This document shows positions 19,500 to 48,488 of a stretch of 64,000 nt of DNA, in pieces. Position numbers and translations under genes: made by a program. The stretch's first letter is position 1. Every line of letters begins with the position of its first letter. The notes under the pieces were generated by a model. The model searched no databases. It worked only from the letters and a program-made list of their open reading frames with translations, and had not been told where the DNA came from. Origin of the DNA: an uncultured Anaerolineales bacterium (GTDB lineage Bacteria; Chloroflexota; Anaerolineae; Anaerolineales; UBA4823); NCBI GenBank assembly GCA_937968125.1, contig CALBUI010000166.1, positions 2,293 to 66,292 on the forward strand, written 5' to 3'.

Positions 19500-19532
19500 T
19501 CTTCAACTCCAATAATGAATTAATTTTGTGGC

Positions 19533-21219: not shown

Positions 21220-21270
21220 CGGGAAAGCGCTTCTCGAAACAAAAGAATATCATCTTATATCTTGAACTCC

Positions 21271-23217: not shown

Positions 23218-23242
23218 CCAATAAATTAAATTTCCAAATAGA

Positions 23243-23794: not shown

Positions 23795-23847
23795 GATGAT
23801 GATTTCTCTTCCGTGTAAGACTGCCGATTGATCCCTTTCAGTATGAA

Positions 23848-24459: not shown

Positions 24460-24501
24460 GGTGTTGCTCCAGTAAAGTTGTGCCGGTTATTGGTTGCGCG
24501 G

Positions 24502-27065: not shown

Positions 27066-27100
27066 GAATATCTCCAACTGCGTTTTATGCAATTACATGC

Positions 27101-27139
27101 AATGCGTGAAACGTATGGTAATTTCACGTTTCACGCATT
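27101..27139 (-). promoter_or_regulatory. perfect 14-bp intercistronic stem-loop between ccmE and ccmF
   Basis: AATGCGTGAAACGT (27101-27114) / ACGTTTCACGCATT (27126-27139) with an 11-nt loop and no U-run. Confidence 0.5.
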
Positions 27140-27175
27140 AGGTAAACCAATAAAAATGCTAGCTGAGCACCTTAC

Positions 27176-31501: not shown

Positions 31502-31538
31502 TAACACCTTAACAGTTTCATCTTCAGAGACGACACCC

Positions 31539-31568
31539 GAAACGGGCCGGTGATCACCGGCTCGTTTC
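31539..31568 (+). promoter_or_regulatory. intercistronic 15-bp-arm palindrome between the octahaem and NapC-like genes
   Basis: GAAACGGGCCGGTGA / TCACCGGCTCGTTTC with one mismatch and no U-run. Confidence 0.4.
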
Positions 31569-31613
31569 AGTCTCAATTATAATAGTGGTAAATTTCTCAA
31601 GCGGAGTACATTT

Positions 31614-33323: not shown

Positions 33324-33426
33324 AATACTAAACAAACTGAACATTAAGATGTAAGTACACCAGCACAAAAGAATACATTTCGTGAGCGATAGTTGGATGA
33401 GTTTATTGGTCCCAAAGGAGGCGCTG

Positions 33427-33915
33427 ATGGAAGAAAAGGAGAAAAACCAGCTCAGTCGACGAAATTTCTTAGCCATTGCTACCGGAGCGATCGGGGCGGT
33501 GATCGGTGTCGTGATGGCGGTACCTGCGGTAGCTTATGTCATCGGCCCTGCTTTGCAGAGGCGCACCGATGAAAATTGGGTCAGGCTTGGATCGACATCG
33601 AAAGTTGAACTAGGAAACCCAACACTTTTTAAAACCATCGTTGAAAACCAAACCGGCTGGATCGTGACCGAGGAGGAGGTTTCGGTCTACGTCGTCACCG
33701 AGGATGGGCGTGAGTATATCGCCCTGTCGAATATCTGCACCCACCTCGGCTGCCGGGTGCGCTGGATTTCCGATCAAGGGCAGTATTTCTGCCCCTGCCA
33801 CAACGCTGCCTTTGACGAACTTGGCCTGGTTGTGACTGGCCCTCCACCGCGACCTCTCGATCGTTACGAGACCAAGGTTGAGGATGATCAACTTTATATC
33901 TTGTTGGGAGGCTGA
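33427..33915 (+). CDS. Rieske [2Fe-2S] subunit of a cytochrome bc-type complex (Tat signal)
   Basis: LSRRNFLAIATGA twin-arginine signal, with CTHLGCRV and CPCHNAAF cluster boxes. RBS AAGGAGG lies 6 nt before ATG 33427. Confidence 0.9.
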   Translation: MEEKEKNQLSRRNFLAIATGAIGAVIGVVMAVPAVAYVIGPALQRRTDENWVRLGSTSKVELGNPTLFKTIVENQTGWIVTEEEVSVYVVTEDGREYIALSNICTHLGCRVRWISDQGQYFCPCHNAAFDELGLVVTGPPPRPLDRYETKVEDDQLYILLGG

Positions 33916-33916
33916 G

Positions 33917-34576
33917 ATGAGTGTAGGCTTTGGCAATTGGCTTGATGAGCGCATCGGTTGGCGCAAGGTTTGGGATGCAATCTTTCTGCGCAAAATCCCG
34001 AAAGTGAATTGGTTATACACCTTGGGCAGCGCGACCCTCTTCGTGGCACTCTTACAGGGCATCACCGGTATCTTGCTGACGATTTATTACGTCCCCACCC
34101 CCGATCATGCTTATGATAGTGTGGTTTTCATCACCACCCAGGTCCCTGGAGGCTGGTTCATCCGCGGTGTGCATTCCTGGGGAGCCAGCGCCATGGTGCT
34201 CCTGTCCGTCTTACACATGGTGCGAGTCATCATGTATGGTGCGTATAAATACCCGCGGGAGGTGACCTGGTTTACCGGCGTGGGTTTACTGCTCGCCACA
34301 ATGGGCTTTGGCTTCACTGGTTATCTTCTACCCTGGGATCAAAAAGCGTATTGGGCGACCATTGTCGGCACTCGCATCGCGGGAGTGGCTCCATTCATCG
34401 GGGAACCGATATTGCGCATCATGCGCGGCGGGGAGGATTTATCCGCAGTCACGCTGGCGCGCTTCTTCGGCACCCATGTCTGGGTGCTGCCGACGATTCT
34501 CTTGCTGTTTCTTGGATTCCACATGTATCTCGTCATCCGCCTCGGTATCAGCGCTGTACCTGGTAAGGAGGAATGA
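33917..34576 (+). CDS. cytochrome b (b6-like N-terminal four-helix subunit)
   Basis: GVHSWGASAMVLLSVLHMVRV and FTGYLLPWDQKAYWAT motifs with conserved His pairs. ATG 33917 follows the Rieske stop with RBS GGGAGG. Confidence 0.9.
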   Translation: MSVGFGNWLDERIGWRKVWDAIFLRKIPKVNWLYTLGSATLFVALLQGITGILLTIYYVPTPDHAYDSVVFITTQVPGGWFIRGVHSWGASAMVLLSVLHMVRVIMYGAYKYPREVTWFTGVGLLLATMGFGFTGYLLPWDQKAYWATIVGTRIAGVAPFIGEPILRIMRGGEDLSAVTLARFFGTHVWVLPTILLLFLGFHMYLVIRLGISAVPGKEE

Positions 34577-36699
34577 CCATGAACGAAAAAGAGCGACAGG
34601 AATACCTGGAGCAGTATAAAAAAGATAAAGAAAAGGGGGTGCCCTTTTTCCCGGATATCCTTTTCAAAGACGCTGTTATCAGCCTGGTGATCTTTATCGC
34701 CCTGGTGGCACTCGCTTATTTCGTCGGCGCACCATTGGAACCGCGCGCCGATCCGGCTGATACCAGCTACACCCCACGCCCGGAGTGGTATTTCTTATTT
34801 TTATTCCAATTGCTGAAGTACTTCCCCGGTTCGCTGGAAGTGATCGGGGTCTTCATCATCCCCTCTGCAGCGATCATCCTCCTGATCGCCTTACCACTGA
34901 TTGATCGATCAGCAAAGCGCCACTTTCTGCGCCGACCGTTTATATTAGGAGCTACGATTTTAAGTGTGATCGGGGTACTCTTCCTAACCATCCAATCTAA
35001 CCGGGAGATACCTCCACCTCTGGAAGTGGTCGGTGGTGACCAGACCGCACTATTGTACACAGAAAATTGCGCCCCCTGTCATGGTCCATCGATGACTGTC
35101 CCGGAAAGTGTCAACTTGCACGAAGTGATCGCCCAAAGCGAGCACGAGGGTATGCCTGCCTGGAGCGGTGATTTAACCTCAGATGAGATCGACGCCCTGG
35201 CTGGCTTTATCATCTCTCCTGCCGGCAGCCAGCTCTTCACCGATAACTGCAGTGAATGCCATGAAGTCGCCGAGCTGGTGGCCAGCAACCCAATCGCCTT
35301 GCGAGAATCGATCCAGCTCGGTTTGGAGTATGAACCTCACGCGGAGTTAGATATCCCTAACTGGAGCACTTCGATCAGCCAGGAGCAGCAAACTACCTTG
35401 CTCAATTTCCTGGTCGCACCGGATGGGCAGCGCCTGTTCGCAACCAATTGCGCTCCCTGCCACGGTCAGTCTGTCGCCTTCGCTGGAGGCGAAGAGCAAC
35501 TGTTGGAGACCATTAGCCAGGGAGGGATGCACCTGGATATGCCGCCCTGGAGAGAAATGCTGGATGATAGCGAGCTGGACTTGCTTGCCCGCTATGTGAC
35601 CGACCCTAACAGTGTTCCCGAAGGAGCGGAAACCTTTCAGGCCAACTGTTCCAGCTGTCATGGCGAGCGCATACCCTCCTCGGAGGATTTGGAGACTGCC
35701 CGTCAGATAATCGCCGAGGGTGGTGGTCATGAGATGATGCCTGTGTGGGGCGAAGTGCTTACTTCAGAACAGCTGGACGCGCTGGTCACCTACACTGTCG
35801 CCGCTGCAGAAGGCACCTCCGTTGAAGTCGGTCAGGAACTCTACAGCCAGAACTGTGCGTTATGTCATGGCGAGTTTGGTGAAGGCGGCCCCAATCCCTC
35901 CCGGGCTGGAGATATCATCTTCCCGATCAGCACCGAAGAATATTTAAAAACAAGGGATGATTTCACGATCCGGTCGATTATCGCACAAGGTCAACCGAAT
36001 TATGGTATGTCTCCCTTTGGTAGTGTTTTCGGAGGACCTTTGGATGATGAAGATATCGACGCTCTTGTAACTTATATTCGATCCTGGGAAGCCAATCCCC
36101 CGGTTGAATTACCACCAGAAATAGTTGTCGAGGTAGACGAAGATACCGTGGCCCTGGATACTGAGCAAATCTATGTTCAGCTTTGCGCACAATGCCATGG
36201 CCTCGAAGGAGAAGGCGGTATTGGACCGTCCTTTGAGGACTCTCAATTCCAGGACACGAGGACCGACACACAGCTCTTGAATGCCATCAATCTTGGACAT
36301 GAGGCAACCTCGATGATCAGTTGGGGCGACGTTCTAAGCGTCGACCAGATTAATGAAATGGTCGCCTTAATCCGGCGGTTTGGATCTCCATCGGTATCAG
36401 GTCTGCCGACACCTGAAGGCGTATCATTTGCTTCAGACGTGATGCCAATTTTCGAAGCTGAATGCGCTGCTTGCCACGGGAATTTCGGAGGTTGGGACGC
36501 AAGTACATATACATCCGTGCTAGGCACAGGAAACAACGCCCCAGTGATCATACCTGGAGATCCAGAAAATAGTCTCCTGGCTCAAAAGATGCTTGGTACG
36601 CATTCCATTGGCGCTATAATGCCGCCAGCTGGATTACTGCCGGAAGATGAGATACAAGTTATCCTTGATTGGATCGAGGAGGGTGCGCTTGATAATTAG
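34573..36699 (+). CDS. cytochrome b C-terminal (subunit IV-like) domain fused to seven c-type cytochrome domains
   Basis: N-terminal PFFPDILFKD...PRPEWYFLFLFQLLKYFPG (PetD/cytb_C) with 3 TM. Then 7 CxxCH (CAPCH, CSECH, CAPCH, CSSCH, CALCH, CAQCH, CAACH), the last in a PSCyt1-like domain. The start is 34573 or 34579. Confidence 0.85.
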   Translation: MTMNEKERQEYLEQYKKDKEKGVPFFPDILFKDAVISLVIFIALVALAYFVGAPLEPRADPADTSYTPRPEWYFLFLFQLLKYFPGSLEVIGVFIIPSAAIILLIALPLIDRSAKRHFLRRPFILGATILSVIGVLFLTIQSNREIPPPLEVVGGDQTALLYTENCAPCHGPSMTVPESVNLHEVIAQSEHEGMPAWSGDLTSDEIDALAGFIISPAGSQLFTDNCSECHEVAELVASNPIALRESIQLGLEYEPHAELDIPNWSTSISQEQQTTLLNFLVAPDGQRLFATNCAPCHGQSVAFAGGEEQLLETISQGGMHLDMPPWREMLDDSELDLLARYVTDPNSVPEGAETFQANCSSCHGERIPSSEDLETARQIIAEGGGHEMMPVWGEVLTSEQLDALVTYTVAAAEGTSVEVGQELYSQNCALCHGEFGEGGPNPSRAGDIIFPISTEEYLKTRDDFTIRSIIAQGQPNYGMSPFGSVFGGPLDDEDIDALVTYIRSWEANPPVELPPEIVVEVDEDTVALDTEQIYVQLCAQCHGLEGEGGIGPSFEDSQFQDTRTDTQLLNAINLGHEATSMISWGDVLSVDQINEMVALIRRFGSPSVSGLPTPEGVSFASDVMPIFEAECAACHGNFGGWDASTYTSVLGTGNNAPVIIPGDPENSLLAQKMLGTHSIGAIMPPAGLLPEDEIQVILDWIEEGALDN

Positions 36700-36783: not shown

Positions 36784-38298
36784 GTGGATTCAAAAAAAAG
36801 TTCTGGATTCTGGCCAGTCAAGGCAAATCTGCGCGCTAAGGTCACCCTAGGTGTGGTGGTACCTTTAACTTTGATCCTGGGAACCTTTACCATCATCGAA
36901 GCCTCTCGTCATCGGGAAACCGAAATCTACAACCTGACTATACTGGCATCGCAGTCTGGAAAAGTGATTGAAAGCTCCTTGCGAAACGCGATGCTGGAAT
37001 CCGATTTCTCCGAAGTGCAGAGGATATTAGATGCGGTTGGCGATGGGGGGGAATTCCGGATCGTTTACCTGCTGGATAGCGAAGGAAAAGTAATCTTTGC
37101 CCCGCATGGTGAAGGTGTTGGTAATCGGTTAGATAACAACCACCCCACCTGCCAGGCATGCCATGAATTGCCACCCAAGTCCAGGCCAAGTAGTGTCGTG
37201 GTGACTGAAGAAGATCAACGCGTCTTTCGGAGCATGTACCCCATAAGAAATGCACCGGAATGCATGGCATGCCATGATCCAGAAGAACCAATCATTGGTT
37301 TACTGCTCACGGATATCCCATTTGCGAAGGTAGAATCAGCCTTAACGGCAGATTTACGCGAGAATCTATTGTGGTGGTTAGGAACGATATTTGTAACAAT
37401 TATCGTTGTAAATATCGCCATGAGCAATATCGTAATCAGCCGATTGCAAAAATTAGCCCTGGCTTTAGTAGGTTTTGGTCAAGACCAATTAAGCCTCCGG
37501 CTGCCTGCTGATGATCCCGACGAGATCGGCCAGCTATCAAAAGCCTTTAATAACATGAGCCAACGCATTGAAGATGAGGTAGCTGAAAATCGAGCCCTCT
37601 CAGAGCACCTGTACACGGAGAGCAAACAGCGCGGCGAATTACTCAAACACCTGATCACTGCCCAGGAGGATGAACGCAAACGCCTAGCCCGGGAACTCCA
37701 CGACGACCTTGGCCAAGCTTTGGGTGCGCTTGCTCTGCAAACCGAGGCAATCGAACAGCTCATAGACAAAAATCCAGAGGGTGCCATCAACCAATTGGAC
37801 TTGACCCGAGATCTGATTACCGACACCACAGATCGCATGTATGAACTTATTTTAGCGCTACGTCCCTCCACCCTCGACGATTTAGGGTTAGTAGCTGCGT
37901 TGCAAACCCAAGCTGAGCGATTCCTCAACGGGAGTGGAATTGACTTCGAGTTAAATGCAGATGGCTTAACCGGTCGCCTTGAACCGGAAATGGAGACCAC
38001 CCTGTACCGGATCTACCAGGAAGCACTGAATAACGTCAGACGCCATTCTGGTGCAAAAAAAGTGTCCATCTCCATCTCTATGTCTGATGGCTTTCTCGTG
38101 AGTGAGATTCAGGACGATGGTCGCGGTTTTGATCTGAGCAGATATAATTCCAGCAATGATGATCACCATGCTTGGGGATTGCTAGGCATCAAGGAACGCG
38201 TCAGCCAGTGGGGTGGAGAAGTGGAAATTATCACGAAACCAGGCAGAGGTACCCTCATCCATCTTTGTTTCCCAATCGCGGAGCTTAATGGTGGCTGA
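36784..38298 (+). CDS. sensor histidine kinase with di-haem (2 x CxxCH) periplasmic sensor domain, HAMP, HisKA_3, HATPase
   Basis: TM1 at about aa 20-40. The periplasmic domain has CQACH (37150-37164) and CMACH (37261-37275). TM2 and HAMP follow, then H-box ARELHDDLGQ and an ATPase with GWGLLGIKERV. GTG start. Confidence 0.85.
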   Translation: MDSKKSSGFWPVKANLRAKVTLGVVVPLTLILGTFTIIEASRHRETEIYNLTILASQSGKVIESSLRNAMLESDFSEVQRILDAVGDGGEFRIVYLLDSEGKVIFAPHGEGVGNRLDNNHPTCQACHELPPKSRPSSVVVTEEDQRVFRSMYPIRNAPECMACHDPEEPIIGLLLTDIPFAKVESALTADLRENLLWWLGTIFVTIIVVNIAMSNIVISRLQKLALALVGFGQDQLSLRLPADDPDEIGQLSKAFNNMSQRIEDEVAENRALSEHLYTESKQRGELLKHLITAQEDERKRLARELHDDLGQALGALALQTEAIEQLIDKNPEGAINQLDLTRDLITDTTDRMYELILALRPSTLDDLGLVAALQTQAERFLNGSGIDFELNADGLTGRLEPEMETTLYRIYQEALNNVRRHSGAKKVSISISMSDGFLVSEIQDDGRGFDLSRYNSSNDDHHAWGLLGIKERVSQWGGEVEIITKPGRGTLIHLCFPIAELNGG

Positions 38299-38941
38299 TC
38301 TTATCTCCGTGCTCATAGTCGATGATCATACAATTGTTCGCTCCGGCGTGCGCATGCTGCTGGAAGCCGAATCGGATATCAAGGTTGTTGGCGAAGCCCT
38401 AAATGGCCGAGAAGCTCTTGAATTAGTCGAAACACTCCACCCTGATGTTGTGCTAATGGATATCACTATGCCTGAGATGGATGGGCTAGAAGCTACCATG
38501 CAGCTCAAAACGCGCTTTCCCGATATCAATGTTCTCGTCCTAACCATGCACAGGTCAGATGATTACTTTTTCGAAATGCTCAAAGCAGGAGCCTCTGGAT
38601 ATATTCTCAAGGGGGCCAAGACCAGCGAACTCATTAATGCGGTCCGTATTGTTCAGCGTGGTGAGATCTTCCTGTATCCTTCGATGACTCAAAAACTCGT
38701 CCAAGGATATCTTCAGTTAGCAGATTGGGAAAACGAGGCTGAACCTTCATTGAGTCCTCGTGAAAAAGAGATTTTCCGATTGTTAGCTGAAGGCTATAGC
38801 AACAAGGAGATCGCCGAAAAGCTCGTAATCAGCCCAAGTACTGTCCATTCTCATCGCGGTAATTTAATGGAAAAGCTTGGACTCAATAATCGACGTGAAT
38901 TGATTCAATACGCTAGGAAGCGCGGTCTGATCCAGAATTAA
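38288..38941 (+). CDS. NarL/LuxR-family response regulator
   Basis: ISVLIVDDHT...DVVLMDITMPEMDG receiver and LSPREKEIFRLLAEGYSNKEIAEKLVISPSTV HTH. ATG 38288 overlaps the kinase stop. Confidence 0.9.
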   Translation: MVADLISVLIVDDHTIVRSGVRMLLEAESDIKVVGEALNGREALELVETLHPDVVLMDITMPEMDGLEATMQLKTRFPDINVLVLTMHRSDDYFFEMLKAGASGYILKGAKTSELINAVRIVQRGEIFLYPSMTQKLVQGYLQLADWENEAEPSLSPREKEIFRLLAEGYSNKEIAEKLVISPSTVHSHRGNLMEKLGLNNRRELIQYARKRGLIQN

Positions 38942-38978: not shown

Positions 38979-39009
38979 AAAACGCCAGATTTTTGGCGTT
39001 TTTTTTTTG
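38979..39009 (+). terminator. rho-independent terminator after the two-component operon
   Basis: Stem AACGCCA / TGGCGTT followed by T9. Confidence 0.7.
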
Positions 39010-39090: not shown

Positions 39091-39429
39091 ATGATGGCCA
39101 ATCATCAGGTGTACGTGATTTGGAAACACCCACTTGTCCGAGATTCATTGCGTCAATTATTGGATCACACCAATATCTCCTGGGTAGGTGATGCTTCAGA
39201 TTTCTCAATCGCGGTTGAAGAGATATCTCGCTTACATCCAGACACAATTCTAATCGAAGAGCTGGAAGGTGAAACTAGCACACCCGCTTTTTTGGAGATT
39301 GTAGAAAAGTTTCAGTGGAAATTGCGCGTGGTTGGAGTAAGTTTAAATGATAATCAATTGAACATCTACCAACACGAGCATCAAACGGTGGGGCATCCAG
39401 AGGATTTGATTCGTTTGATAGTTCAGTGA
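39091..39429 (+). CDS. stand-alone degenerate receiver-like (pseudo-receiver) protein
   Basis: 112 aa with VYVIWKHPLVRDSLRQLL...HPDTILIEEL...RVVGVSLNDN. This aligns by eye to NarL-type REC, but the DD pocket is WK and the phospho-acceptor Asp is Glu. Confidence 0.45.
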   Translation: MMANHQVYVIWKHPLVRDSLRQLLDHTNISWVGDASDFSIAVEEISRLHPDTILIEELEGETSTPAFLEIVEKFQWKLRVVGVSLNDNQLNIYQHEHQTVGHPEDLIRLIVQ

Positions 39430-39571
39430 TTATCCTCAGATTGTCTCTCCGGGACAATTTAGTTGTACGTCATGATCATTTTTTACCTAGGAGGTCATCT
39501 ATCGGACAAAAAAAATTCGTTATGTGCATTCGAGAATCTGTATAAATTGATAATTTCTGAGGAGGTGCAAA

Positions 39572-40906
39572 ATGCTTCGAAAACTTATATTAATAACATC
39601 AATGCTTATTCTAGCATCATTGTTCTTAGCCGCTTGTGCCGGTGATGAGGGTCCCGAGGGGCCTCAAGGACCCCAAGGACCTGCAGGACCAGCAGGAGCT
39701 CAAGGTCCCGAAGGTTCACCAGGAACCGAATTGACTGAAGAACAAGTAGCGGCGATAGCAATTGCTGAAAATCTAGGTGGTATTCAGTTCCCAGGCTTAG
39801 ACGAAGTACGTCGTGGTTGTCCCGCTTGTCATGTTCTGGTGGATGAAGAGACCGGGCAATACACACTACCTTATGAGGCTCATGAAAGGGCAGAAGCCCG
39901 CGGTGAAGAACATCCAGAGACTGCCCCAGACGGTACTTCGCTGGCAGCAACAGAAGAAGTTAATGTTACTACCTGTTTGCAATGCCATGCCGCCGGAACT
40001 GGTGACCGTGCTGGAAAAGGGGTCATTGCACCACTCGCCTTGCGTGATATCGTCCATCCTGCCCATATGTACAGCCAGTGGTTCAAGCTCCATTATGGTG
40101 GAAACTGCTTCACCTGCCACAACGTTGATGGGGAAGGAAATTGGGAGCTGCTAACGGAAAAGGTCGAAGTAAATGAGAAAGGTGTCCCCGATCCTGATGC
40201 GCTGCCGATCCCGGGTGCTGTACCAATCGGTGCAGGAACGGCATCAGGCTCAGCGGCCATTGGCGGCAGATTATATGACAAGTGGTGGAAAGAAGCTGGG
40301 GTAGATGAACCCAGTTCAGACCAACCCTTATGGGCAACTCAAACCACAAACACCCGCAGTGGTGGTGATACCTGGCGCTGCAAAGAATGCCATGGATGGG
40401 ATTACCAAGGGGCCGCGGGAGCATATGGTTCCGGTTCCCATTTCACCGGGTTCCCTGGCGTGTTCGATGTCCAGTCCGAATCCTTTGACACGATCGTTGC
40501 ATTTATTAATGGAAGCGCCAATTCAGATCACGACTTTTCTGCGATGGGCGACGAAGCCATTAACAACCTGGCTACCTTCCTGAAATCCAACCTGATCGAT
40601 GTCTCACCTTTAATTGATTCCGAGACGAAAGCTGCCATCGGAGGAGACACAGCCAACGGTGAATCTCTTTATGCTGCCTGTTCAGCCTGCCATGGTGAAG
40701 ATGGGCGCTTGATCAACTTCGGTGACGATGACGATCCAACATATGTTGGCACGGTCGCTTTAGACAACCCATGGGAATTCCTGCACAAGGTGCGCGCTGG
40801 CCAGCCTGGTACTGCTATGCCCGCTTCCTTAGATGCCGATTGGAGTATGGATGATTTGCTTGATTTGCTGGCTTTCTCCCAGACTCTACCCACCGAGGCA
40901 CCATAG
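39572..40906 (+). CDS. pentahaem c-type cytochrome lipoprotein with collagen-like Gly-X-Y stalk
   Basis: Lipobox LAAC, 10 GXY triplets and 5 CxxCH (CPACH, CLQCH, CFTCH, CKECH, CSACH). RBS GAGGAGG. Confidence 0.85.
   Translation: MLRKLILITSMLILASLFLAACAGDEGPEGPQGPQGPAGPAGAQGPEGSPGTELTEEQVAAIAIAENLGGIQFPGLDEVRRGCPACHVLVDEETGQYTLPYEAHERAEARGEEHPETAPDGTSLAATEEVNVTTCLQCHAAGTGDRAGKGVIAPLALRDIVHPAHMYSQWFKLHYGGNCFTCHNVDGEGNWELLTEKVEVNEKGVPDPDALPIPGAVPIGAGTASGSAAIGGRLYDKWWKEAGVDEPSSDQPLWATQTTNTRSGGDTWRCKECHGWDYQGAAGAYGSGSHFTGFPGVFDVQSESFDTIVAFINGSANSDHDFSAMGDEAINNLATFLKSNLIDVSPLIDSETKAAIGGDTANGESLYAACSACHGEDGRLINFGDDDDPTYVGTVALDNPWEFLHKVRAGQPGTAMPASLDADWSMDDLLDLLAFSQTLPTEAP
39641..39730 (+). repeat. 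collagen-like region, 10 uninterrupted Gly-X-Y triplets
   Basis: GDE GPE GPQ GPQ GPA GPA GAQ GPE GSP GTE, starting two residues after the lipobox Cys. Confidence 0.85.
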
Positions 40907-40930: not shown

Positions 40931-40956
40931 GGGCCGGAGATTTGTCTCTCCGGCCC
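40931..40956 (+). promoter_or_regulatory. intercistronic 10-bp perfect stem-loop between the pentahaem gene and actA
   Basis: GGGCCGGAGA / TCTCCGGCCC with a 6-nt loop and no U-run. Confidence 0.4.
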
Positions 40957-40988
40957 AAATCGTAATTCATCTCGCCTTTGAGGTTGGA

Positions 40989-41504
40989 ATGAAACGGTTT
41001 TGGTTGATTGGTTTATTTATATTAGTTGTGGTCGGTGTAATCGCTGGGGTAATCCTCACCCGTGTCCAGGTTTACGCAGCCCCCGAGCAGCCTATCGCAT
41101 ACAGCCACCAGGTTCATGTTGAGGCGGGTATCCAGTGTTTGTTTTGCCATCCGAGCCCCCTAAAGTCTCCGTTAGCAGGCATCCCATCTGTGCAGAAATG
41201 TATGGGATGTCACAATGTCATTGACACAGATAACCCAGAGATACAGCAGGTTGCCAGCTACTATGAAAGTGGAGAACCGATCCCTTGGATACGGGTTAAT
41301 TTACAACCTGATTTTGTTTATTTCAATCACCAGCCACACCTTGGTGCAGGTCTTAACTGTGAAACTTGTCACGGCGATGTTGGTCAGATGGATGTGACCA
41401 GACAAACCGTAAAAATGGATATGGGTTGGTGTCTAGATTGTCACATTAATCAATCGGATGAAAAAGTGGGCCGCCTTGCTGACTGCCTGGCCTGCCATAA
41501 GTGA
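40989..41504 (+). CDS. actA: ACIII subunit ActA-like membrane-anchored pentahaem cytochrome c
   Basis: N-terminal TM and 5 CxxCH in 171 aa (CLFCH, CMGCH, CETCH, CLDCH, CLACH). It is the first gene of the act-like operon. Confidence 0.8.
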   Translation: MKRFWLIGLFILVVVGVIAGVILTRVQVYAAPEQPIAYSHQVHVEAGIQCLFCHPSPLKSPLAGIPSVQKCMGCHNVIDTDNPEIQQVASYYESGEPIPWIRVNLQPDFVYFNHQPHLGAGLNCETCHGDVGQMDVTRQTVKMDMGWCLDCHINQSDEKVGRLADCLACHK

Positions 41505-41509
41505 TAAAA

Positions 41510-43723
41510 ATGACCAAGCGTGTATCTCGACGTGATTTCCTCAAGCTTACCGCAGGTGCAACAGTGGTCACTGGCCTCGCTCCGAGTGTCCGGCGAATGG
41601 TCCTTGAACCTTATGTGCAACCGCCTGAAGAAGTATTGCCAGGCGAGGCTACCTGGTATGCCAGCACGTGCCGCTTATGCCCAGCTGGATGTGGCATCAT
41701 CGTACGGGTGATCAACGGGCGTGCAAAAAAGATTGAGGGTAATCCTCACCACCCCCTCAATCAGGGAAAACTATGCGCCCGTGGGCAGGCAGGACTCCAG
41801 ATCCTCTATAACCCAGATCGCCTTAAAAACGCTGTCCTGCAGAGTGGAGGGCGGGGATCACTAAAGTTTGAACCCCTGTATTGGTCGGAAGCATTAGATA
41901 TCTTAGTTGATAAACTCGAAACCCTAAGCAACCCAAATCGAGTTGCATTCTTGGGTGGTTTGATGCCTTCGCATTTATACAAGTTAACTACTCGTTTTCT
42001 TTCGTCGTTTGGATCGTCATCGCCAATTATTTACGACTTGCATTCTGCACTTGAGGGTCGAAATTCTACGGTCCAGCTATCTGAGTCCCTCTTTGGATCC
42101 CCCGAATTACCAATATATGATCTGGCGAACGCTGAAGTGATCTTCTCATTTGGCGCAAACTTCTTGGAGACCTGGATGTCGCCAGTTTCCCAAAGCCATG
42201 CTTTTGGCACGATGCGTCAAGGGCAGCTTGGGGGTCGTGGATTTCTTGTCCATTTTGAGCCACGCCTCTCCGCTACCGCTGCTTCTGCTGACGAGTGGAT
42301 TCCTATAAAACCAGGTGCCGAGGGTTACGTCGCTTTGGCGATTGGCCGCATTATCCTTGAGGAACGCCTTGGTCAAGCAAGCAGTCACCGCCCATATTCA
42401 ATTCTATATCAAAACGTGGATGTGCAAGAGATGGCGGATGCCAGCCAGATTCCGGTCGAAGTTTTGCACCGCTTTGCACGTATTTTCGCCGATGCCGACC
42501 AGGCCATTGCAATTCCCGGTGGGGGCTTAGCTGGGCAGCACAATGGAGGCACCAGCATGCTGGCCGTACAAGCCCTCAATTTGCTGAGCGCTCAAATCGG
42601 AAGGGTGGGCGGAGTTTTCCTGTCTCAACCCGGACCCACAGCTGGCTTTCGCCAGAATCCAAATCCAGGATCGTTTGAAAATCTATCGATCTTAATTGAA
42701 CGCATGAAATCCGGAGAAATCGACCTCCTGTTGATCTACGGCACAAACCCGGTGTTCGAACTGCCAACCTCAGCGGGATTTGCTGAGGCGATCGCTAGCG
42801 TGCCTTATGTTATTTCTTTCAGCCAATTTGTCGATGAGACTGCGGCGCGAGCTGATCTGATCCTGCCTGACCACACTTACCTTGAATCCTGGGGCTATGA
42901 AGTGCCTGCACCCGGAGCTGCGAAACCTGCAGTAAGCAGTCAACAACCTGTTGTGCGACCACTTTACGATACACGATCCACTGGAGATGTTCTCCTGGCA
43001 GTTGCCGAACGGTTGGGAGGTCAAGTTGCCAATGCACTGCCTTGGTCCGATGAGGTAGATTTCCTGCAAGAATTAGCCACTGAATTGCATGGATCCTCCT
43101 TGGGTGCTTATGATGCTAAGACTCCGAGTAGTTTCTGGGCCCTCTGGCGGCAGTATGGTGGCTGGTGGACTGAAAAGGAAATCCCTCGCGAGCCTGATAT
43201 CTCCACAATTGTCCAGGAGCCTATACCTGTGTCCGAGCCTGTTTTCGATGGAGAGGAAAATTCATACCCCTATCACCTGCACCCATATCCATCGATAACG
43301 CTCTCTGATGGAAGGGGTGCCAACCTGCCCTGGTTGCAGGGAGCGCCAGATCCGATGACCACCGTATGTTGGGGAACTTGGGTGGAATTAAATCCCGAGA
43401 CTGCCAGCTCATTAGGGGTAAGCGAGGATGATGTTGTGCGAGTGATCTCACCCCATGGTGAATTGGAAGCACCTGTCGTCATCTATCCTGGAATTCGACC
43501 TGATGTCGTCGCAATCCCGGTTGGGCAGGGACACGAACAATTTGGTCGATTTGCAGAACAACGCGGGAGCAACCCCATTGCACTGGTAGCTTCAATTACC
43601 GACCCAGAGACTGGCTCACTTGCTTGGGGTGCAACCCGCGTACGAATAGAACCAACTGGACGTAAAAAGAGCCTGGCCAGATTAGAGAGTCTAGCCGGGG
43701 AAGGACGTGAATCTATTGGCTGA
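41510..43723 (+). CDS. actB: ActB1/QrcB-like molybdopterin-oxidoreductase-family subunit (Tat signal), separate polypeptide
   Basis: SRRDFLKLTAGA Tat signal and CRLCPAGC-x27-C (CX2CX3CX27C FS0-type motif). About 737 aa. The start is ATG 41510, or GTG 41501. Confidence 0.8.
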   Translation: MTKRVSRRDFLKLTAGATVVTGLAPSVRRMVLEPYVQPPEEVLPGEATWYASTCRLCPAGCGIIVRVINGRAKKIEGNPHHPLNQGKLCARGQAGLQILYNPDRLKNAVLQSGGRGSLKFEPLYWSEALDILVDKLETLSNPNRVAFLGGLMPSHLYKLTTRFLSSFGSSSPIIYDLHSALEGRNSTVQLSESLFGSPELPIYDLANAEVIFSFGANFLETWMSPVSQSHAFGTMRQGQLGGRGFLVHFEPRLSATAASADEWIPIKPGAEGYVALAIGRIILEERLGQASSHRPYSILYQNVDVQEMADASQIPVEVLHRFARIFADADQAIAIPGGGLAGQHNGGTSMLAVQALNLLSAQIGRVGGVFLSQPGPTAGFRQNPNPGSFENLSILIERMKSGEIDLLLIYGTNPVFELPTSAGFAEAIASVPYVISFSQFVDETAARADLILPDHTYLESWGYEVPAPGAAKPAVSSQQPVVRPLYDTRSTGDVLLAVAERLGGQVANALPWSDEVDFLQELATELHGSSLGAYDAKTPSSFWALWRQYGGWWTEKEIPREPDISTIVQEPIPVSEPVFDGEENSYPYHLHPYPSITLSDGRGANLPWLQGAPDPMTTVCWGTWVELNPETASSLGVSEDDVVRVISPHGELEAPVVIYPGIRPDVVAIPVGQGHEQFGRFAEQRGSNPIALVASITDPETGSLAWGATRVRIEPTGRKKSLARLESLAGEGRESIG

Positions 43724-44420
43724 GATTGAACCACGCTGGGTGTTAATCGTAGATCTTGACCGCTGTACTGGCTGCCAGGCATGTGTGGTCGCTTGCCAGG
43801 CAGAAAACAATGTGCCTACGGTAGGTGAGCATGAGACGATAGAAGGACGTTGGTTGCACTGGATCCATATTGAGCGCTATTGGGAAGGTGAATATCCAAA
43901 TATCAAGGCGCGTTTTATGCCGGTCATGTGCCAGCAATGCACCGCAGCCCCTTGTGAACCAGTATGTCCCGTGTTTGCTACCTATCACACTCCAGAAGGC
44001 CTGAATGCCCAGATCTACAACCGCTGCATTGGCACGCGCTTCTGTGGAAGCGCCTGCCCATACAAAACTCGTACTTACAATTGGCTGCGACCTGAATTCC
44101 CTGAACCATTGCACGAGCAGCTCAATCCCGATGTGACCGTCCGCTCTCGTGGTTTGATCGAGAAATGCACGTTCTGCGTCCAGCGCATCAGGCGAATTGA
44201 AATTGAAGCCCATGCCCAGGGACGAGAACCAGTTGATGGCGAGATTCAACCAGCCTGTGTGCAAACCTGCCCACCTGATGCATTAGTCTTTGGTGACCTG
44301 AATGACCCAAGTAGCCGGGTCAGCCAGCTGGCGACGAGCCATCGATCTTTTAAACTCTTGGGCGAGCTTGGTACAGATCCGGGCGTGATTTACTTGAAAG
44401 GAGGCGAGACGAATGTCTGA
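43707..44420 (+). CDS. actB: ActB2/QrcC-like 4Fe-4S ferredoxin-type subunit
   Basis: CTGCQACVVAC, CQQCTAAPCEPVCP, CIGTRFCGSACP and CTFCVQR...C cluster motifs, typical of the CISM FeS subunit. Confidence 0.85.
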   Translation: MNLLAEIEPRWVLIVDLDRCTGCQACVVACQAENNVPTVGEHETIEGRWLHWIHIERYWEGEYPNIKARFMPVMCQQCTAAPCEPVCPVFATYHTPEGLNAQIYNRCIGTRFCGSACPYKTRTYNWLRPEFPEPLHEQLNPDVTVRSRGLIEKCTFCVQRIRRIEIEAHAQGREPVDGEIQPACVQTCPPDALVFGDLNDPSSRVSQLATSHRSFKLLGELGTDPGVIYLKGGETNV

Positions 44421-45834
44421 ATCAGAGGTATTAGCGTACCCTGAGGATAGTAGCGCTGCAGAATTCGAAGATCGCTTGCTGCTCGCCGAACGGACAAGCT
44501 CAGAGATCAATCAAGCTGTGCTCCAACCTATGTTTCGCACAAGTTGGAAGTTTTGGGCACTGGTGATATTTCTAAGCTTATTGGTGCTGTGGGGCCTTTT
44601 TGCCTGGGGATACCTAATATATTGGGGAATGGGCACCGCGGGTATCAATCGACCGGTTTATTGGGGCTTTTTTATCGCCACCTTCGTTTTCTGGGTCGGT
44701 ATCAGCCACGCAGGAACGATGATCTCCGCTGTGTTGCGCTTACTTAAAGCAGATTGGCGCAGACCCATCACGCGGGGCGCGGAGGCGATGACTGCTTTCG
44801 CGCTGATGATGGCTGGGTTGTTCCCATTCATCCATCTGGGCAGGGTGTGGAAATTCTATTGGATGCTCCCCTACCCCAATAACCGCTTAATGTGGCCAAA
44901 TTTCCAATCGCCTCTGATGTGGGATATGGTTGCCATCTTCACCTATTTTATTGGTTCGACCCTTTATCTCTATCTTGCTTTGATCCCGGACCTTGCTATG
45001 GCCCGCGATCACACAGGTAAATGGCGCCAGAAATTGTATCGAGTTTTATCTCTCGGATGGCGCGGCACGGAGGCAGAATGGCACAAGCTCCACCGTGCCT
45101 TGAGCATCTTTTCCGTGGCGATTATCCCGATTTTCCTCTCTGTCCACTCCATTGTGTCCTGGGATTTTGCAGTTACGATTCAACCTCGCTGGCACAGCAC
45201 AATATTCGCACCATACTTCGTGGTCGGTGCAATTTATTCAGGACTGGCTGCCCTTGCCTGCATCCTGGTCATCGTTCGCAAGGGAATGCAGCTGCAGGAA
45301 TTTTTGCGTTCTGAACACTTCGACGCATTGGGTAAATTGGTCCTGGTGGCAGGAATGGCCTGGGTTTATTTCTGGTTCGCCGGATTTATTGTTGAATGGT
45401 ATGGCAACGAACCCGTGACCCGCGAACTGATCCATGAGGAAGTCGCTGGGAGTTTGGCACCCCTCTTCTACCTGCAGATGTCTGCCAACCTGATTCCTAT
45501 CGTCATGCTTATTTTCAAGAAAGTTCGCACCACGCCTTGGTTATTGCTGGTGGCGACACTATTAGTGAATGTCGGCATGTTTACTGAGCGCGTGTTAATT
45601 GTAGTTGGCAACTTGCAGCGAAATTTCATGCCTTTCAATTGGGGTGAATACAGCCCAACTTGGGTTGAAGTGAGCATCGTGGTGATGACTTTCGCAGGAT
45701 TTGCGCTCCTATATACAATATTTTCCCGTATCTTCCCCTACGTACCGGTCTGGGAGATCAAGGAAGGCCGCCTGCGGTACACCGTACGCCGCATCGGTCG
45801 ATTATTAGTGCCAACCGCTGCTGAGATCGAGTAG
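44413..45834 (+). CDS. actC: ActC/NrfD/PsrC-like polytopic quinone-interacting membrane subunit
   Basis: 473 aa with about 10 TM helices. It immediately follows the FeS subunit with an overlapping start. Confidence 0.8.
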   Translation: MSESEVLAYPEDSSAAEFEDRLLLAERTSSEINQAVLQPMFRTSWKFWALVIFLSLLVLWGLFAWGYLIYWGMGTAGINRPVYWGFFIATFVFWVGISHAGTMISAVLRLLKADWRRPITRGAEAMTAFALMMAGLFPFIHLGRVWKFYWMLPYPNNRLMWPNFQSPLMWDMVAIFTYFIGSTLYLYLALIPDLAMARDHTGKWRQKLYRVLSLGWRGTEAEWHKLHRALSIFSVAIIPIFLSVHSIVSWDFAVTIQPRWHSTIFAPYFVVGAIYSGLAALACILVIVRKGMQLQEFLRSEHFDALGKLVLVAGMAWVYFWFAGFIVEWYGNEPVTRELIHEEVAGSLAPLFYLQMSANLIPIVMLIFKKVRTTPWLLLVATLLVNVGMFTERVLIVVGNLQRNFMPFNWGEYSPTWVEVSIVVMTFAGFALLYTIFSRIFPYVPVWEIKEGRLRYTVRRIGRLLVPTAAEIE

Positions 45835-45852
45835 CGGCTGAGGAATTTTCCA

Positions 45853-46380
45853 ATGAGTGAAAATGAAATTTCTCTGGTAGCCCTCTTTGAAAAAAGCACT
45901 GACACTGCCAAGGCGATTGACGATTTGCATACTCTGGGTATCCCGGATGACAGGATGGTGGTGATGACCGATGTACCTTATCCTGAACAGGCCTTAGGGA
46001 GAACCCGAGAATGGTCATCCTTACCCTATATCGTACTTGCAGGAGCAATCGTTGGGTTGCTTATAGGATTGTTCCTATCGGCCATCACGCCACATCTTTA
46101 TCGTCTGGACGTGGGCGGTCATCCTCCAGTCGGTTTTCCGCCCGCAGCGGTGATCACTTTCGTTTTCACGATGATGGCGATCATTGTATCGACATTTCTT
46201 GGTGTACTTTGGGAAATGGACTTCCCCAGTTTTGGTCCAGCCCCTTATCACAAAGCCGTCACAGACGGCCAGCTGGCGATACTCATAGAATTCTCCCCTG
46301 ACCTGGATGATAAAGTCAACCAGGTGCTTAAAGCCAACCAGGCTGATTACATCGGCGAACCGGAGATGATTTCGCTATGA
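45853..46380 (+). CDS. actD: ActD-like (DUF3341) membrane subunit
   Basis: 175 aa with a soluble N-domain (LVALFEKSTDTAKAIDDLHTLGIPDD) and two TM helices. The position after actC supports the call. Confidence 0.6.
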   Translation: MSENEISLVALFEKSTDTAKAIDDLHTLGIPDDRMVVMTDVPYPEQALGRTREWSSLPYIVLAGAIVGLLIGLFLSAITPHLYRLDVGGHPPVGFPPAAVITFVFTMMAIIVSTFLGVLWEMDFPSFGPAPYHKAVTDGQLAILIEFSPDLDDKVNQVLKANQADYIGEPEMISL

Positions 46381-46886
46381 GTCCTCGTTTGCAGCGTGGA
46401 TTACTCATAATTGCCGTCTTACTGACCCCGTTCATCGTCGGACTCTTGTTCACCTACGAGATCTTAAAAATCCCCTTTACCACAGACATGCAAAACCAGA
46501 TCTCAATAAATTACCAGGAAAGCCCTCGGATTTTGCCTCCTGATGGTGCCGTTCCCGTGCAAGGGCTGGCAATTATTCCTGATGAATTTCCAGTAAATCC
46601 GATTCCAGCGGATCCGGTCTCGCTGCAGCGCGGCAAAATTCTCTATGATATTCACTGTCAGTTATGTCATGGAGAAATGGGGCATGGAGATGGACCATTA
46701 GCGAAATATTTTGACCGCACACCCCAGAATTTGACCAGCTCCCAGATCACCACAGAATTCGATGGGGCAGTCTATTTAACGATATTGAATGGTTTTGGTC
46801 AGATGCCAGCCCTATACGAGAACCTGTCCCCTCATGAAACTTGGGACGTGGTGAATTATCTTCACACTCTGCCTGCGAGGGAATAA
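46377..46886 (+). CDS. actE: ActE-like membrane-anchored monohaem cytochrome c
   Basis: N-terminal TM and a single CQLCHGEMGHGDG class-I haem site. ATGA overlap with actD. Confidence 0.7.
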   Translation: MSPRLQRGLLIIAVLLTPFIVGLLFTYEILKIPFTTDMQNQISINYQESPRILPPDGAVPVQGLAIIPDEFPVNPIPADPVSLQRGKILYDIHCQLCHGEMGHGDGPLAKYFDRTPQNLTSSQITTEFDGAVYLTILNGFGQMPALYENLSPHETWDVVNYLHTLPARE

Positions 46887-46892
46887 GAAAAG

Positions 46893-47939
46893 ATGACAAA
46901 TAAAATCGCAATCTTATCCTCAACCATTATTTTGTTATTGACTGCTTGTGCCGCTCCTCAAAGCCTTCCTTCAGGTCCGACACCAATACCAACCCTCATT
47001 CCAGCCACGGAGCCAAGCGATCCTTTGACAGCAACAGCGGTGCCATCGTTTTCCATCCAGAGCTACCCTGCCGGGCTTCCCTCAGCTGAACTCGGCCAGG
47101 AGCTTTATCAGACAAATTGTGCAAGTTGTCACGGCGAGGACGGGAATGGAGTTGTGCCTGGTGCACGCAATTTTGGTGATTTGGATTATATGCGCGGAGA
47201 AACCCCCGCCTCTTTTTATTCAACGGTCACAGAAGGACGAGGTGAAATGGAGGGCTTTCGCGACTTAATGACCTCGGATGAGATTTGGGATGTCATCTTT
47301 TATGTATGGCGTTTTTCTACGGATGCTGAAACACTTGCCCTTGGAGGACACCTGTACGAAGCAAATTGCCAGGTTTGCCATGGAATGGATGGTACCGGGG
47401 AAGTATTGGGGGCCGCTGATCTCTCCGACCTTCGTTTTGTTGACAACCAGGCTCCCCGAGATTTCTACTTGATCACCACCCAAGGCAAAGGCTCGATGCC
47501 AGCCTGGCAGGGACGGCTTTCCCAGGAAGAACGCTGGGCAGTAATTGACTATGTGCGCACATTCTCTTATGACCCAACCATCCCAGGAGAAACTGTTGCC
47601 CAACCTCCTCCGACAGCAGCTGTCGAAGAAATCGTATGTGACCCGAATTACCTGGCACAAACTAACCCCTTTGATTGGAGTGATCCAGCTGTTTCCATCG
47701 CTGGTCAGGTGATTTATGACCAGGCCTGCGGTATGTGTCATGGAGTTGATGGCTCAGGCGGTATCCCAGGTACCCCTGATTACACCAAACCCGATATCAC
47801 GGAGGATTTACGCACCAATAGCGGTGAAAAATTATGTATTGTTGCTGAGGGCAGTAAATCAATGCCTGGATGGAAAGAGACGCTTACCGATCAGCAAATG
47901 TGGGAGGCGCTAACTTACATCTATTCATTCGGAAAGTAG
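46893..47939 (+). CDS. trihaem (3 x class-I cytochrome c domain) lipoprotein
   Basis: Lipobox LTAC, then CASCHGEDGNG, CQVCHGMDGTG and CGMCHGVDGSG, each followed by a distal Met region (SMPAW/SMPGW). Confidence 0.8.
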   Translation: MTNKIAILSSTIILLLTACAAPQSLPSGPTPIPTLIPATEPSDPLTATAVPSFSIQSYPAGLPSAELGQELYQTNCASCHGEDGNGVVPGARNFGDLDYMRGETPASFYSTVTEGRGEMEGFRDLMTSDEIWDVIFYVWRFSTDAETLALGGHLYEANCQVCHGMDGTGEVLGAADLSDLRFVDNQAPRDFYLITTQGKGSMPAWQGRLSQEERWAVIDYVRTFSYDPTIPGETVAQPPPTAAVEEIVCDPNYLAQTNPFDWSDPAVSIAGQVIYDQACGMCHGVDGSGGIPGTPDYTKPDITEDLRTNSGEKLCIVAEGSKSMPGWKETLTDQQMWEALTYIYSFGK

Positions 47940-47985: not shown

Positions 47986-48093
47986 AACTGGATCTACATC
48001 GCTCACGAGGATGGCAGCCTGGGAGTCCACAACCCGGCTTACACTAGGGACTTGCTCGACGCATCACTGGAAACATTGGGGTTATGGGGATAG
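47986..48093 (+). pseudogene. 36-codon remnant of the 3' end of a paralogue of the hexahaem cytochrome gene
   Basis: About 93 percent nucleotide identity by eye to 49622-49730. It translates to NWIYIAHEDGSLGVHNPAYTRDLLDASLETLGLWG*, against NWIYIAHEDGSLGVHNPAYTRALLDASLETLGLGGQ* in the intact gene. The frame is closed by TAG at 47977 with no start. Confidence 0.75.
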
Positions 48094-48488
48094 TAATAGT
48101 CCCTTCTGACGAAAATTTAGTTCGGCAACCACACATTATCACATAACTGTTGTGCAAGTTTCTATCATCAGCTTGCACAGTATTGTTTTAATAGTGTGTC
48201 CTTTTTCAAACCCAGGTGAACTAACCCAATGCGAACGAACAAATTGGAATTGCAACGGGCAGCTTCAATTGACAGCTACACCTTTGAGTTTAATGACCCT
48301 AACATGATAACAAATAGGAAAACCGTGCGCGACAAAGAATACCCCTCCCGGATCGGATCGAATCAGCCATACTGAAATTACACAACTTAGTTAAGTGCTC
48401 TTCCTACTTCTTCTGAAGGATGAGAGGAGAAACTCAATACATTTGTCACAGCGGGAAAAGTGACATATAATACTAATACTATATTCAT

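Follow-up and report, generated by a model that had tools for sequence, protein, structure and literature searches.

The 64,000-nucleotide window analysed here comes from an uncultured Anaerolineales bacterium (GenBank assembly GCA_937968125.1, contig CALBUI010000166.1, positions 2,293 to 66,292 of the forward strand; all positions below count from the first letter of this whole stretch). Its + strand carries a gene for a pentahaem lipoprotein cytochrome, in which a predicted lipid anchor is joined to the haem head by a collagen-like stalk of Gly-X-Y triplets, directly upstream of an operon resembling that of alternative complex III (ACIII). The stalk is unbroken in every orthologue found, the gene keeps its place beside the operon where the outer flanks change, and the protein is a candidate redox partner of the complex encoded downstream. 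The gene and its immediate surroundings comprise the following elements:

39559-39565, + strand: Shine-Dalgarno sequence GAGGAGG of the pentahaem gene, by direct reading of the sequence
39572-40906, + strand: open reading frame (ORF) of the pentahaem cytochrome, 444 residues
39572-39637, + strand: signal peptide, residues 1-21 (MLRKLILITSMLILASLFLAA, then C22), with the lipobox L19-A20-A21-C22, read from the sequence
39641-39730, + strand: collagen-like stalk of ten unbroken Gly-X-Y triplets, residues 24-53, read from the sequence
39734-39781, + strand: short helix LTEEQvAAIAIAENLG, residues 55-70, directly after the stalk (helix 56-70 in the AlphaFold2 model, at a low predicted local distance difference test score, pLDDT)
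39797-40171, + strand: trihaem region, with CPACH at 39818-39832, CLQCH at 39974-39988 and CFTCH at 40106-40120
40244-40903, + strand: dihaem module LYDKWW...CKECHGWDY (haem 4, 40379-40393) plus CSACH (haem 5, 40679-40693)
40931-40956, + strand: GC-rich hairpin with a perfect 10-bp stem and a 6-nt loop (GGGCCGGAGA-6 nt-TCTCCGGCCC)
40989-47939, + strand: the ACIII-like operon as a whole

The pentahaem ORF matches public gene calls on metagenome-assembled genome (MAG) contigs that encode the identical protein, and the eight orthologous loci aligned all have a GGAG-type purine-rich box just 5' of the ATG. The lipobox pattern [LVI][ASTVI][GAS]C is matched at Cys22, which is retained in 47 of 47 aligned orthologues and predicted to be the lipidated first residue of the mature protein. 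A single Ala separates it from the stalk, whose triplets are GDE GPE GPQ GPQ GPA GPA GAQ GPE GSP GTE. The segment that follows conforms to a consensus conserved across the orthologues (LTExQxxALxxAxxLAGIQFP); its helix, residues 55-70, is a possible neck or registration element. The protein has exactly five CxxCH motifs, at residues 83, 135, 179, 270 and 370, and only 11 Cys in total, the lipobox Cys and the ten of the five motifs, so that there is no room for additional haem motifs. The five motifs are invariant in the aligned orthologues and, together with the signal peptide and a cytochrome c maturation (Ccm) system I in the window, mark the protein as a c-type multihaem cytochrome. The lipobox, triplets and haem motifs thus lie where an initial annotation of this DNA, made from the sequence alone, had placed them.

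A homologue search yields 71 orthologues of the pentahaem protein at 65-90% identity, making 72 sequences with that of the window; those that are named come from Anaerolineales, Anaerolineae or Chloroflexota MAGs. All 72 have the lipobox and an unbroken Gly-X-Y run of 8-18 triplets (64 distinct stalks), which starts at Cys+2 in 67; deviations from the pattern are confined to the two ends of the run, none being internal. The run usually abuts the conserved LTEEQ helix, and differences in length are therefore whole triplets. Position X is occupied by Pro in 63% of cases, position Y by Gln in 31%, Ala in 24%, Glu in 21% and Pro in 12%. When the nine loci with available DNA are compared in pairs, the Gly codons disagree at their third base 74% of the time, which is near saturation, and the X and Y residues differ in 41%; Gly is never replaced. 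Because Gly is kept despite this near-saturated synonymous change, the Gly periodicity itself is, as judged from these comparisons, under purifying selection. Such strict periodicity is needless for a flexible spacer and is required by a triple helix.

The window holds three Gly-X-Y runs on the + strand, each starting at the lipobox Cys+2 of a cytochrome; a pattern scan gives the following genes:

30239, + strand: cytochrome with 8 haems, 13 triplets
39572, + strand: the pentahaem cytochrome, 5 haems, 10 triplets
48669, + strand: cytochrome with 6 haems, 13 triplets (its start had been put at 48668 in the initial annotation)

The coding sequence of the pentahaem stalk is Gly/Pro-rich, and Tandem Repeats Finder detects in it a weak 9-nt tandem repeat, of just 2.4 copies, at 39676-39697; this is what speaks for reading the run as chance low complexity or as a recent, functionless expansion of a DNA repeat. 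With a Gly frequency of 0.11 outside the stalk, however, ten in-phase Gly would arise by chance at about 2.6e-10 per position, and the common starting point of the three runs is likewise at odds with such an origin, which is ruled out by the conservation in every orthologue at saturated synonymous sites; its probability is negligible. The initial annotation had taken the stalk to be selected rather than low-complexity noise, and had named orthologous operons lacking the Gly-X-Y segment as the observation that would speak against this; with the segment present in 72 of 72 sequences, the claim stands.

The same N-terminus recurs on other proteins. BLASTP finds nothing in common between the pentahaem protein and the 30239 and 48669 proteins beyond LAACAG and the Gly-X-Y run, which bears out the earlier impression, gained by eye, that their haem domains are unlike. 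Altogether, the lipobox with Gly-X-Y stands on unrelated 5-, 6-, 8- and 9/10-haem heads, in at least four multihaem cytochrome families besides the pentahaem one. In the hexahaem family, 101 of 120 homologues carry the lipobox and 7-23 triplets, and one more has the Gly-X-Y run without a lipobox match; the homologues without Gly-X-Y (18) are N-terminally truncated, beginning just past the stalk, several with MGDLT, and are most likely gene-call artefacts. The hexahaem homologue P0222 has a plain Sec signal with neither lipobox nor Gly-X-Y. Four-haem paralogues with the C-terminal dihaem module carry Pro/Thr/Glu-rich linkers of about 30-40 residues after the lipobox, in place of Gly-X-Y, and seven-haem relatives (L006, 8001-12421) have an N-terminal transmembrane anchor followed by Gly-X-Y, with no lipobox. 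These seven-haem relatives adjoin a 740-residue collagen-containing multihaem cytochrome, away from any ACIII.

A scan for the pattern Cys-Ala-Gly-xx-GPxGPxGP over one genome per species, which is a sample and not a census, gives at least 39 matches that have a signal peptide followed by six or more triplets. Among the matches listed, 26 have CxxCH motifs (the full-length members 6, 8, 9 or 10 haems, several others being cut by a contig end), all from Chloroflexota save one Myxococcales protein, and 13 have no haem motif, one of these resembling a frameshifted octahaem gene. Likewise among the matches listed, small non-haem Gly-X-Y lipoproteins come from Gemmatimonas, Myxococcales, Ignavibacteriales and Rikenellaceae, and the module occurs solely on multihaem cytochromes in the sampled Anaerolineae-labelled genomes. 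A Dehalococcoidia lipoprotein (L061) has the lipobox and 13 Gly-X-Y triplets ahead of a family-5 solute-binding domain (SBP_bac_5, 1e-64). In this Dehalococcoidia MAG, and in a second (L111) that is similar by eye, a long Pro/Thr-rich linker lies between the 13 triplets and the binding domain. Because solute-binding and other non-haem lipoproteins carry it, the lipobox with Gly-X-Y is, by its sequence distribution, a generic lipoprotein tether and not restricted to cytochromes.

The stalk had initially been described as a transferable module. Its modularity holds, in that it is found on unrelated heads and the same heads occur with other N-termini; recent shuffling finds no support. The three stalks of the window genome share 0.61-0.69 identity in DNA, which is the compositional background and gives no sign of gene conversion or recent exchange between them, and the orthologous stalks of the window and of CP070764.1, which follow their genes, share 0.68-0.81.

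The haem head has two parts. In the trihaem region, the conserved His104, His114, His162, His165 and His174 are candidate distal ligands, and Pfam returns sub- or near-threshold matches to Cytochrome_C7, CIII and MtrC/MtrF II-IV. The dihaem module has an invariant Met416 (40817-40819) and an invariant His405 and, behind haem 4, the conserved His290 and His320; its residues 359-435 match the class-I domain Cytochrome_CBB3 of Pfam at 3.7e-13; the last haem is accordingly assigned, by these sequence features, as His/Met-ligated in a class-I cytochrome c domain. Among PDB sequences, a profile search leads to the c domains of CcoP and actinobacterial QcrC. An AlphaFold2 monomer was built from the 71-sequence alignment; the nearest structures that Foldseek finds for its confident part are TsdA, cytochrome c4 and QcrC-type dihaem cytochromes, all with weak scores. 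The dihaem module is widespread: clustering at 50% identity leaves about 1,030 groups that match the head, and in some proteins the module occurs in up to six tandem copies. The pentahaem architecture is essentially one such cluster plus the seven-haem relatives.

Many homologues bear the Joint Genome Institute (JGI) name 'thiosulfate dehydrogenase', and TsdA tops the Foldseek list of PDB entries, so that an enzyme of the TsdA type has to be considered. Its entries have E = 3e-3 and TM-scores of about 0.15-0.25, though; the sequence similarity is confined to the CxxCH stretch (E = 0.004-0.008), and the resemblance is that of a generic dihaem class-I fold common to cytochrome c4, CcoP and QcrC. 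TsdA catalysis requires a His/Cys-ligated haem. Every Cys of the pentahaem protein belongs either to the lipobox or to a CxxCH motif, and the family has no further conserved Cys; with no spare Cys for such ligation, the TsdA identity is rejected as very improbable.

The genes that precede and follow the pentahaem gene form a conserved cassette, which in the window reads:

36784-38298, + strand: sensor histidine kinase whose outer loop has two CxxCH motifs (CQACH at residue 123, CMACH at residue 160)
38213-38941 as listed, + strand: LuxR-type response regulator (217 residues in public calls, implying a later start)
38979-39002, + strand: canonical U-run terminator, from a terminator scan
39091-39429, + strand: receiver-like protein of 112 residues, with no output domain
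40989-41504, + strand: ActA, 5 haems (Pfam; 5e-41 to 8K9E_A)
41501-43723, + strand: ActB1, molybdopterin-like, with a twin-arginine translocation (TAT) signal (Pfam; QrcB-like)
43707-44420, + strand: ActB2, iron-sulphur (FeS) protein, overlapping ActB1 (Pfam)
44413-45834, + strand: ActC, NrfD-like quinol subunit (1e-97 to 6LOD_C)
45853-46380, + strand: ActD (PF11821, 5.5e-21)
46377-46886, + strand: ActE, monohaem (Pfam)
46893-47939, + strand: trihaem lipoprotein with three class-I domains and a Pro/Thr-rich linker (Pfam)

As in ACIII (ActABCDEF; 6F0K, 6BTM, 6LOD, 8K9E), the operon has a pentahaem ActA, an NrfD-like ActC, an ActD and a monohaem ActE, and going by these genes the downstream complex is rightly termed 'ACIII-like'. 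Unlike in ACIII, ActB is split rather than fused, there is no ActF-like ORF within the operon, and the genes of the pentahaem and trihaem lipoproteins flank it. The split of ActB is that of QrcB and QrcC in Qrc, the menaquinone reductase of sulfate reducers. ActB1 keeps the TAT signal and an N-terminal four-Cys cluster motif (CxxCxxxC...C); its top PDB match is ArrA, an arsenate reductase (5e-50), followed by the ActB of ACIII. By sequence, the split-ActB, ActF-less operon looks like a Qrc/ACIII intermediate.

On the upstream side, the CxxCH-bearing loop of the kinase lies between its two hydrophobic segments, and the kinase is likely a haem-c redox sensor. In the 112-residue protein, HPDTILIEELEG has Glu where the adjacent regulator (HPDVVLMDITMP) has the phospho-acceptor Asp, and the N-terminal acidic pair is absent; it looks like a pseudo-receiver. 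Every cassette has a protein of this kind (110-116 residues, no Pfam match) encoded just ahead of the pentahaem gene, the gap being only 18 nt in L005. The full cassette, in the order haem-sensor kinase, regulator, pseudo-receiver, pentahaem protein, ActA-B1-B2-C-D-E and trihaem lipoprotein, recurs in four other loci (L001, L003-L005), that of CP070764.1 at 81% identity and the others at 70%, 68% and 65%, with unrelated outer flanks; gene order is also the same in L150, which carries an identical pentahaem protein. Counting four further loci from a metagenome scan, the pentahaem gene adjoins actA in all nine loci that have downstream sequence. The synteny backs the association with the ACIII-like complex that the initial annotation had proposed, and because the neighbourhood is kept across changing flanks, it is the main evidence for a functional link.

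The spacer between the pentahaem gene and actA measures 82 nt. The hairpin within it, a perfect 10-bp stem-loop as first annotated, begins 24 nt past the stop codon and is followed by AAATCG; it lacks the direct U-run of an intrinsic terminator and differs in this from the nearby canonical terminator at 38979-39002. Its region has a minimum free energy of -26.7 to -30.9 kcal/mol (z = -2.6 to -3.2). Orthologous loci have a hairpin in nine of nine cases, 13-33 nt after the stop codon, with stems of 9-16 bp in at least six different sequences (z = -2.1 to -5.8), and the U-run is absent from eight of the nine. Because the structure is conserved while its sequence changes, the comparison points to a role at the RNA level rather than to a protein-binding site. 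Rfam has no relevant family for the hairpin or the leader, and no sigma-70-like promoter site is scored upstream of the pentahaem gene or in the 82-nt spacer. Co-transcription with differential mRNA stability, as first suggested, is plausible from the sequence, as is a partial terminator or 3'-end stabiliser that would raise the ratio of carrier to complex. A second, weaker hairpin at 40963-40988 (+ strand) overlaps the actA Shine-Dalgarno sequence (GAGG, 40980-40983), recurs in the close relatives L129 and L131, and is absent in L003 and L004; it might modulate actA translation. In the alignment of the eight upstream regions, the sole conserved element besides the ribosome-binding site of the pentahaem gene is an AGGAGGT box, shared among close relatives. 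Its longer form AGGAGGT(C/T)nTCTAT, at 39488-39505 on the + strand, about 75 nt 5' of the start codon, is kept in L001, L128, L129 and L131; it might serve a leader peptide as ribosome-binding site, or belong to a leader RNA.

These considerations lead to a working model in which the pentahaem protein, having the N-terminal anchor, stalk and haem head of a tethered carrier, acts as the membrane-tethered c-type redox partner of the downstream ACIII-like complex, a proposal to which we give slightly better than even credence. After export, the protein would be cleaved and lipidated at Cys22, as its lipobox indicates, and so fixed to the outer face of the cytoplasmic membrane. The (Gly-X-Y)10 segment, residues 24-53, would then assemble as a three-chain triple helix, trimerisation being our extension of the observed selection on periodicity. 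The resulting trimer would stand on three lipid anchors and carry three pentahaem heads at its upper end. The triple helix rises 0.286 nm per residue, so that 30 residues would span about 8.6 nm, and the stalks of the orthologues 7-15 nm; because a stalk of this length would bring it there, the lipid-anchored head would be at the level of ActE. Each head would form a five-haem wire, in which three probably bis-His haems lead to the dihaem module, ending His/Met in a CcoP/QcrC-like class-I domain, a fold type that serves docking between complex III analogues and terminal enzymes. The stalk would hold the carrier at the membrane while the head reaches the exit haem, ActE, atop the periplasmic module, and electrons would pass from menaquinol to ActC, the FeS clusters, ActA, ActE, the pentahaem and/or trihaem lipoprotein and finally terminal acceptors, if the presumed direction is right. 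The conserved hairpin would probably let carrier and complex be made in independent amounts from a single transcription unit, whether by partial termination or by stabilising a 3' end.

Several observations weigh against this model. On the side of the complex, the best NCBIfam matches of ActA, ActB1 and ActB2 are QrcA, QrcB and QrcC, all sub-threshold, and such Qrc-like scores could mean that electrons flow from cytochrome to quinone; the trihaem lipoprotein encoded last in the operon could just as well be the direct partner; and the hairpin of L005, alone among the nine, has a U-run, within a spacer of 210 nt that is compatible with separate transcription. This last observation also favours taking the pentahaem protein for an independent carrier or terminal enzyme, acting for instance on an extracellular or soluble substrate, which shares the redox-sensing kinase and regulator and whose strong hairpin, placed after the stop codon, terminates a unit of its own. 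The operon encodes its own trihaem lipoprotein, other multihaem cytochromes abound in the window (30239, 31614, 48669, 50410), and the seven-haem Gly-X-Y relatives with a transmembrane anchor sit away from any ACIII, all of which would fit such independence; but the adjacency to actA holds in all nine loci, at 65-90% identity and with changing flanks, eight of nine hairpins lack the U-run that the window uses in a terminator elsewhere, no promoter-like site is scored in the 82-nt spacer, and no catalytic signature was found in the head. We consider the independent protein unlikely on this balance.

On the side of the stalk, ten hydroxyproline-free triplets are short for a stable triple helix, no trimerisation domain is identified in the pentahaem protein, and its stalk scores 21.3 bits with Pfam Collagen (PF01391), below the gathering cut-off of 27.2 that the 13-triplet stalks of the 30239 and 48669 proteins pass (29.4 and 30.7 bits). 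The AlphaFold2 model has pLDDT mostly above 90 for residues 225-444 only, the stalk and trihaem region lying below 50 (trihaem 30-50). A plain spacer might be enough, as the four-haem paralogues carry Pro/Thr- or Pro/Glu-rich linkers of about 30-40 residues in the same position, the trihaem lipoprotein at 46893 has a Pro/Thr-rich linker, and the Dehalococcoidia lipoprotein with 13 triplets belongs to the family-5 solute-binding type, which generally works as a monomer. The chief competitor of the trimer is thus a monomeric tethered carrier on an extended, protease-resistant, polyproline-II-like spacer, and the shortness of the stalks (8-18 triplets) agrees with it. Such a spacer has no need of Gly at every third residue, yet there is no internal break in the 72 orthologues, lengths vary by whole triplets, Gly is kept through saturating synonymous change, and 101 of the 120 hexahaem-family members behave in the same way; Pro dominates position X, and the common Y residues Gln, Ala, Glu and Pro are reported to favour the triple helix in host-guest peptide studies. 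That lipobox-(Gly-X-Y)n is a true triple-helical stalk, making rigid trimeric rod-and-head cytochromes of about 7-15 nm with a height matched to the complexes, is therefore put forward tentatively, as a possibility we hold to fall somewhat short of probable; the monomeric spacer we likewise regard as possible and short of probable.

Further features of the window lie apart from the pentahaem gene and its operon:

30239-36699, + strand: gene set of the Gly-X-Y octahaem lipoprotein, with a NapC/NirT-like 7-CxxCH protein, a Rieske protein, cytochrome b, and the C-terminal part of cytochrome b fused to c-type domains
50410-52608, + strand: decahaem lipoprotein with a Cys-Pro-rich linker, CGTPSPTAEATPCPEAPPCPDCPEAPACPDCPECPEPE, right after the lipobox (about 50473-50590)
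18798-27703, - strand: Ccm system I cluster (CcmA, B, C, E, F, H and a thioredoxin-like protein)

Genes of stalked cytochromes precede both quinol-oxidising complexes in the window, and CP070764.1 shows the same layout. The stalks on the lipoprotein cytochromes of the window are of three types: Gly-X-Y, Pro/Thr-rich and Cys-Pro. The Cys-Pro linker of the decahaem protein is likened to the immunoglobulin hinge (CPPCP) and could form inter-chain disulfides, going by its composition; a 'Gly-X-Y' run on the minus strand at 50505-50576 is the antisense of this linker region. Directly behind the trihaem gene, a stretch of some 110 nt (47986-48096, + strand) matches the 3' end of the hexahaem gene (49616-49730, + strand) at about 92% identity and translates to WIYIAHEDGSLGVHNPAYTRDLLDASLETLGLWG*; this gene remnant points to an earlier event between the ACIII-like operon and the hexahaem gene, either a duplication or a gene replacement. 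At 21271-23304, a gene for a 676-residue membrane protein bearing two cytochrome c domains of class I interrupts the Ccm cluster.

Tethered carriers have been described for the ACIII of Roseiflexus castenholzii, which reduces a tethered auracyanin and cytochrome c551, both with Gly-rich linkers after the anchor that let the head swing, the latter with a lipoprotein signal peptide (PMC10873879). Like these, the pentahaem protein would be a periplasmic carrier of a Chloroflexota ACIII with a linker behind its anchor, which matches the role proposed for it. Unlike these, with one Cu or one haem on short, irregular Gly-rich linkers (CGGGQG; Gly24-Gly35), it has five haems, a strictly periodic Gly-X-Y segment of 30 residues and a gene directly 5' of actA in a conserved cassette. 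In the ACIII of R. marinus, the wire comprises six haems, is about 60 Å long and terminates in ActE, positioned atop ActA (PMC5928083).

The pentahaem protein shares a class-I cytochrome c domain, tethered by an N-terminal anchor and linker, with cytochrome c_y and the lipoprotein cytochromes c551 and c553; those differ in being monohaem, with aperiodic Ala/Pro- or Pro/Thr-rich linkers in place of a collagen-like one. Cytochrome c_y of Rhodobacter and c551/c553 of Gram-positives and heliobacteria are anchored class-I carriers between a complex III analogue and terminal enzymes.

With respect to the stalk, the nearest likeness is to the bacterial collagens Scl1/Scl2 and BclA (PF01391), which have unbroken Gly-X-Y with Pro-rich X, polar or charged Y and no hydroxyproline, and a globular head; the pentahaem stalk itself has a weak local NCBIfam match to Scl2/SclB and weak PDB matches to collagen peptides. 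Their collagen regions are far longer (17-91 triplets in BclA, about 79 in Scl2) and come with defined domains for trimerisation; the proteins serve as adhesins on the cell surface or as spore filaments, with LPXTG or exosporium anchoring. The pentahaem protein differs from them in its 10 triplets (8-18 in orthologues), N-terminal lipid anchor and redox head. Collagens XIII and XVII, MARCO, SR-A and the collectins combine an N-terminal anchor or cluster with a collagen stalk and trimeric C-terminal heads. The likeness to such eukaryotic membrane collagens lies in the anchor-stalk-head topology and is analogy only, with no homology past Gly-X-Y; they differ in their transmembrane anchors, coiled-coil necks, hydroxyproline and non-redox heads.

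A tethered electron carrier beside a complex III analogue belongs to a known class of function; to our knowledge, membrane-tethered carriers are the rule where soluble ones would be lost, and the height and rigidity of the tether are rarely considered. In the literature searched we find no account of the collagen-type tether, of how strictly it is conserved or of its occurrence on several cytochrome families, and a full-text search turns up no paper joining collagen-like repeats to multihaem or c-type cytochromes. Should the stalk be a plain spacer, the finding shrinks to an unusual linker composition. If, on the other hand, the proteins are triple-helical trimers, they would arrange electron transfer outside the cytoplasm in an undescribed way, as redox-active bacterial equivalents of membrane collagens, and the height of the stalk would fit that of respiratory complexes such as the ACIII-like and bc-type ones whose genes adjoin theirs. 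Short, hydroxyproline-free collagen modules on coloured, easily assayed heads would also lend themselves to studies of minimal triple-helix stability and to protein engineering, and a concrete candidate partner is now named for the Qrc/ACIII hybrid complex. For the Anaerolineales, an abundant and poorly cultured group of sediments and sludge, such a collagen-type stalk, strictly conserved and present on at least five cytochrome families, would enrich the respiratory chains by a structural principle: a defined height, and probably a threefold clustering, of haem wires.

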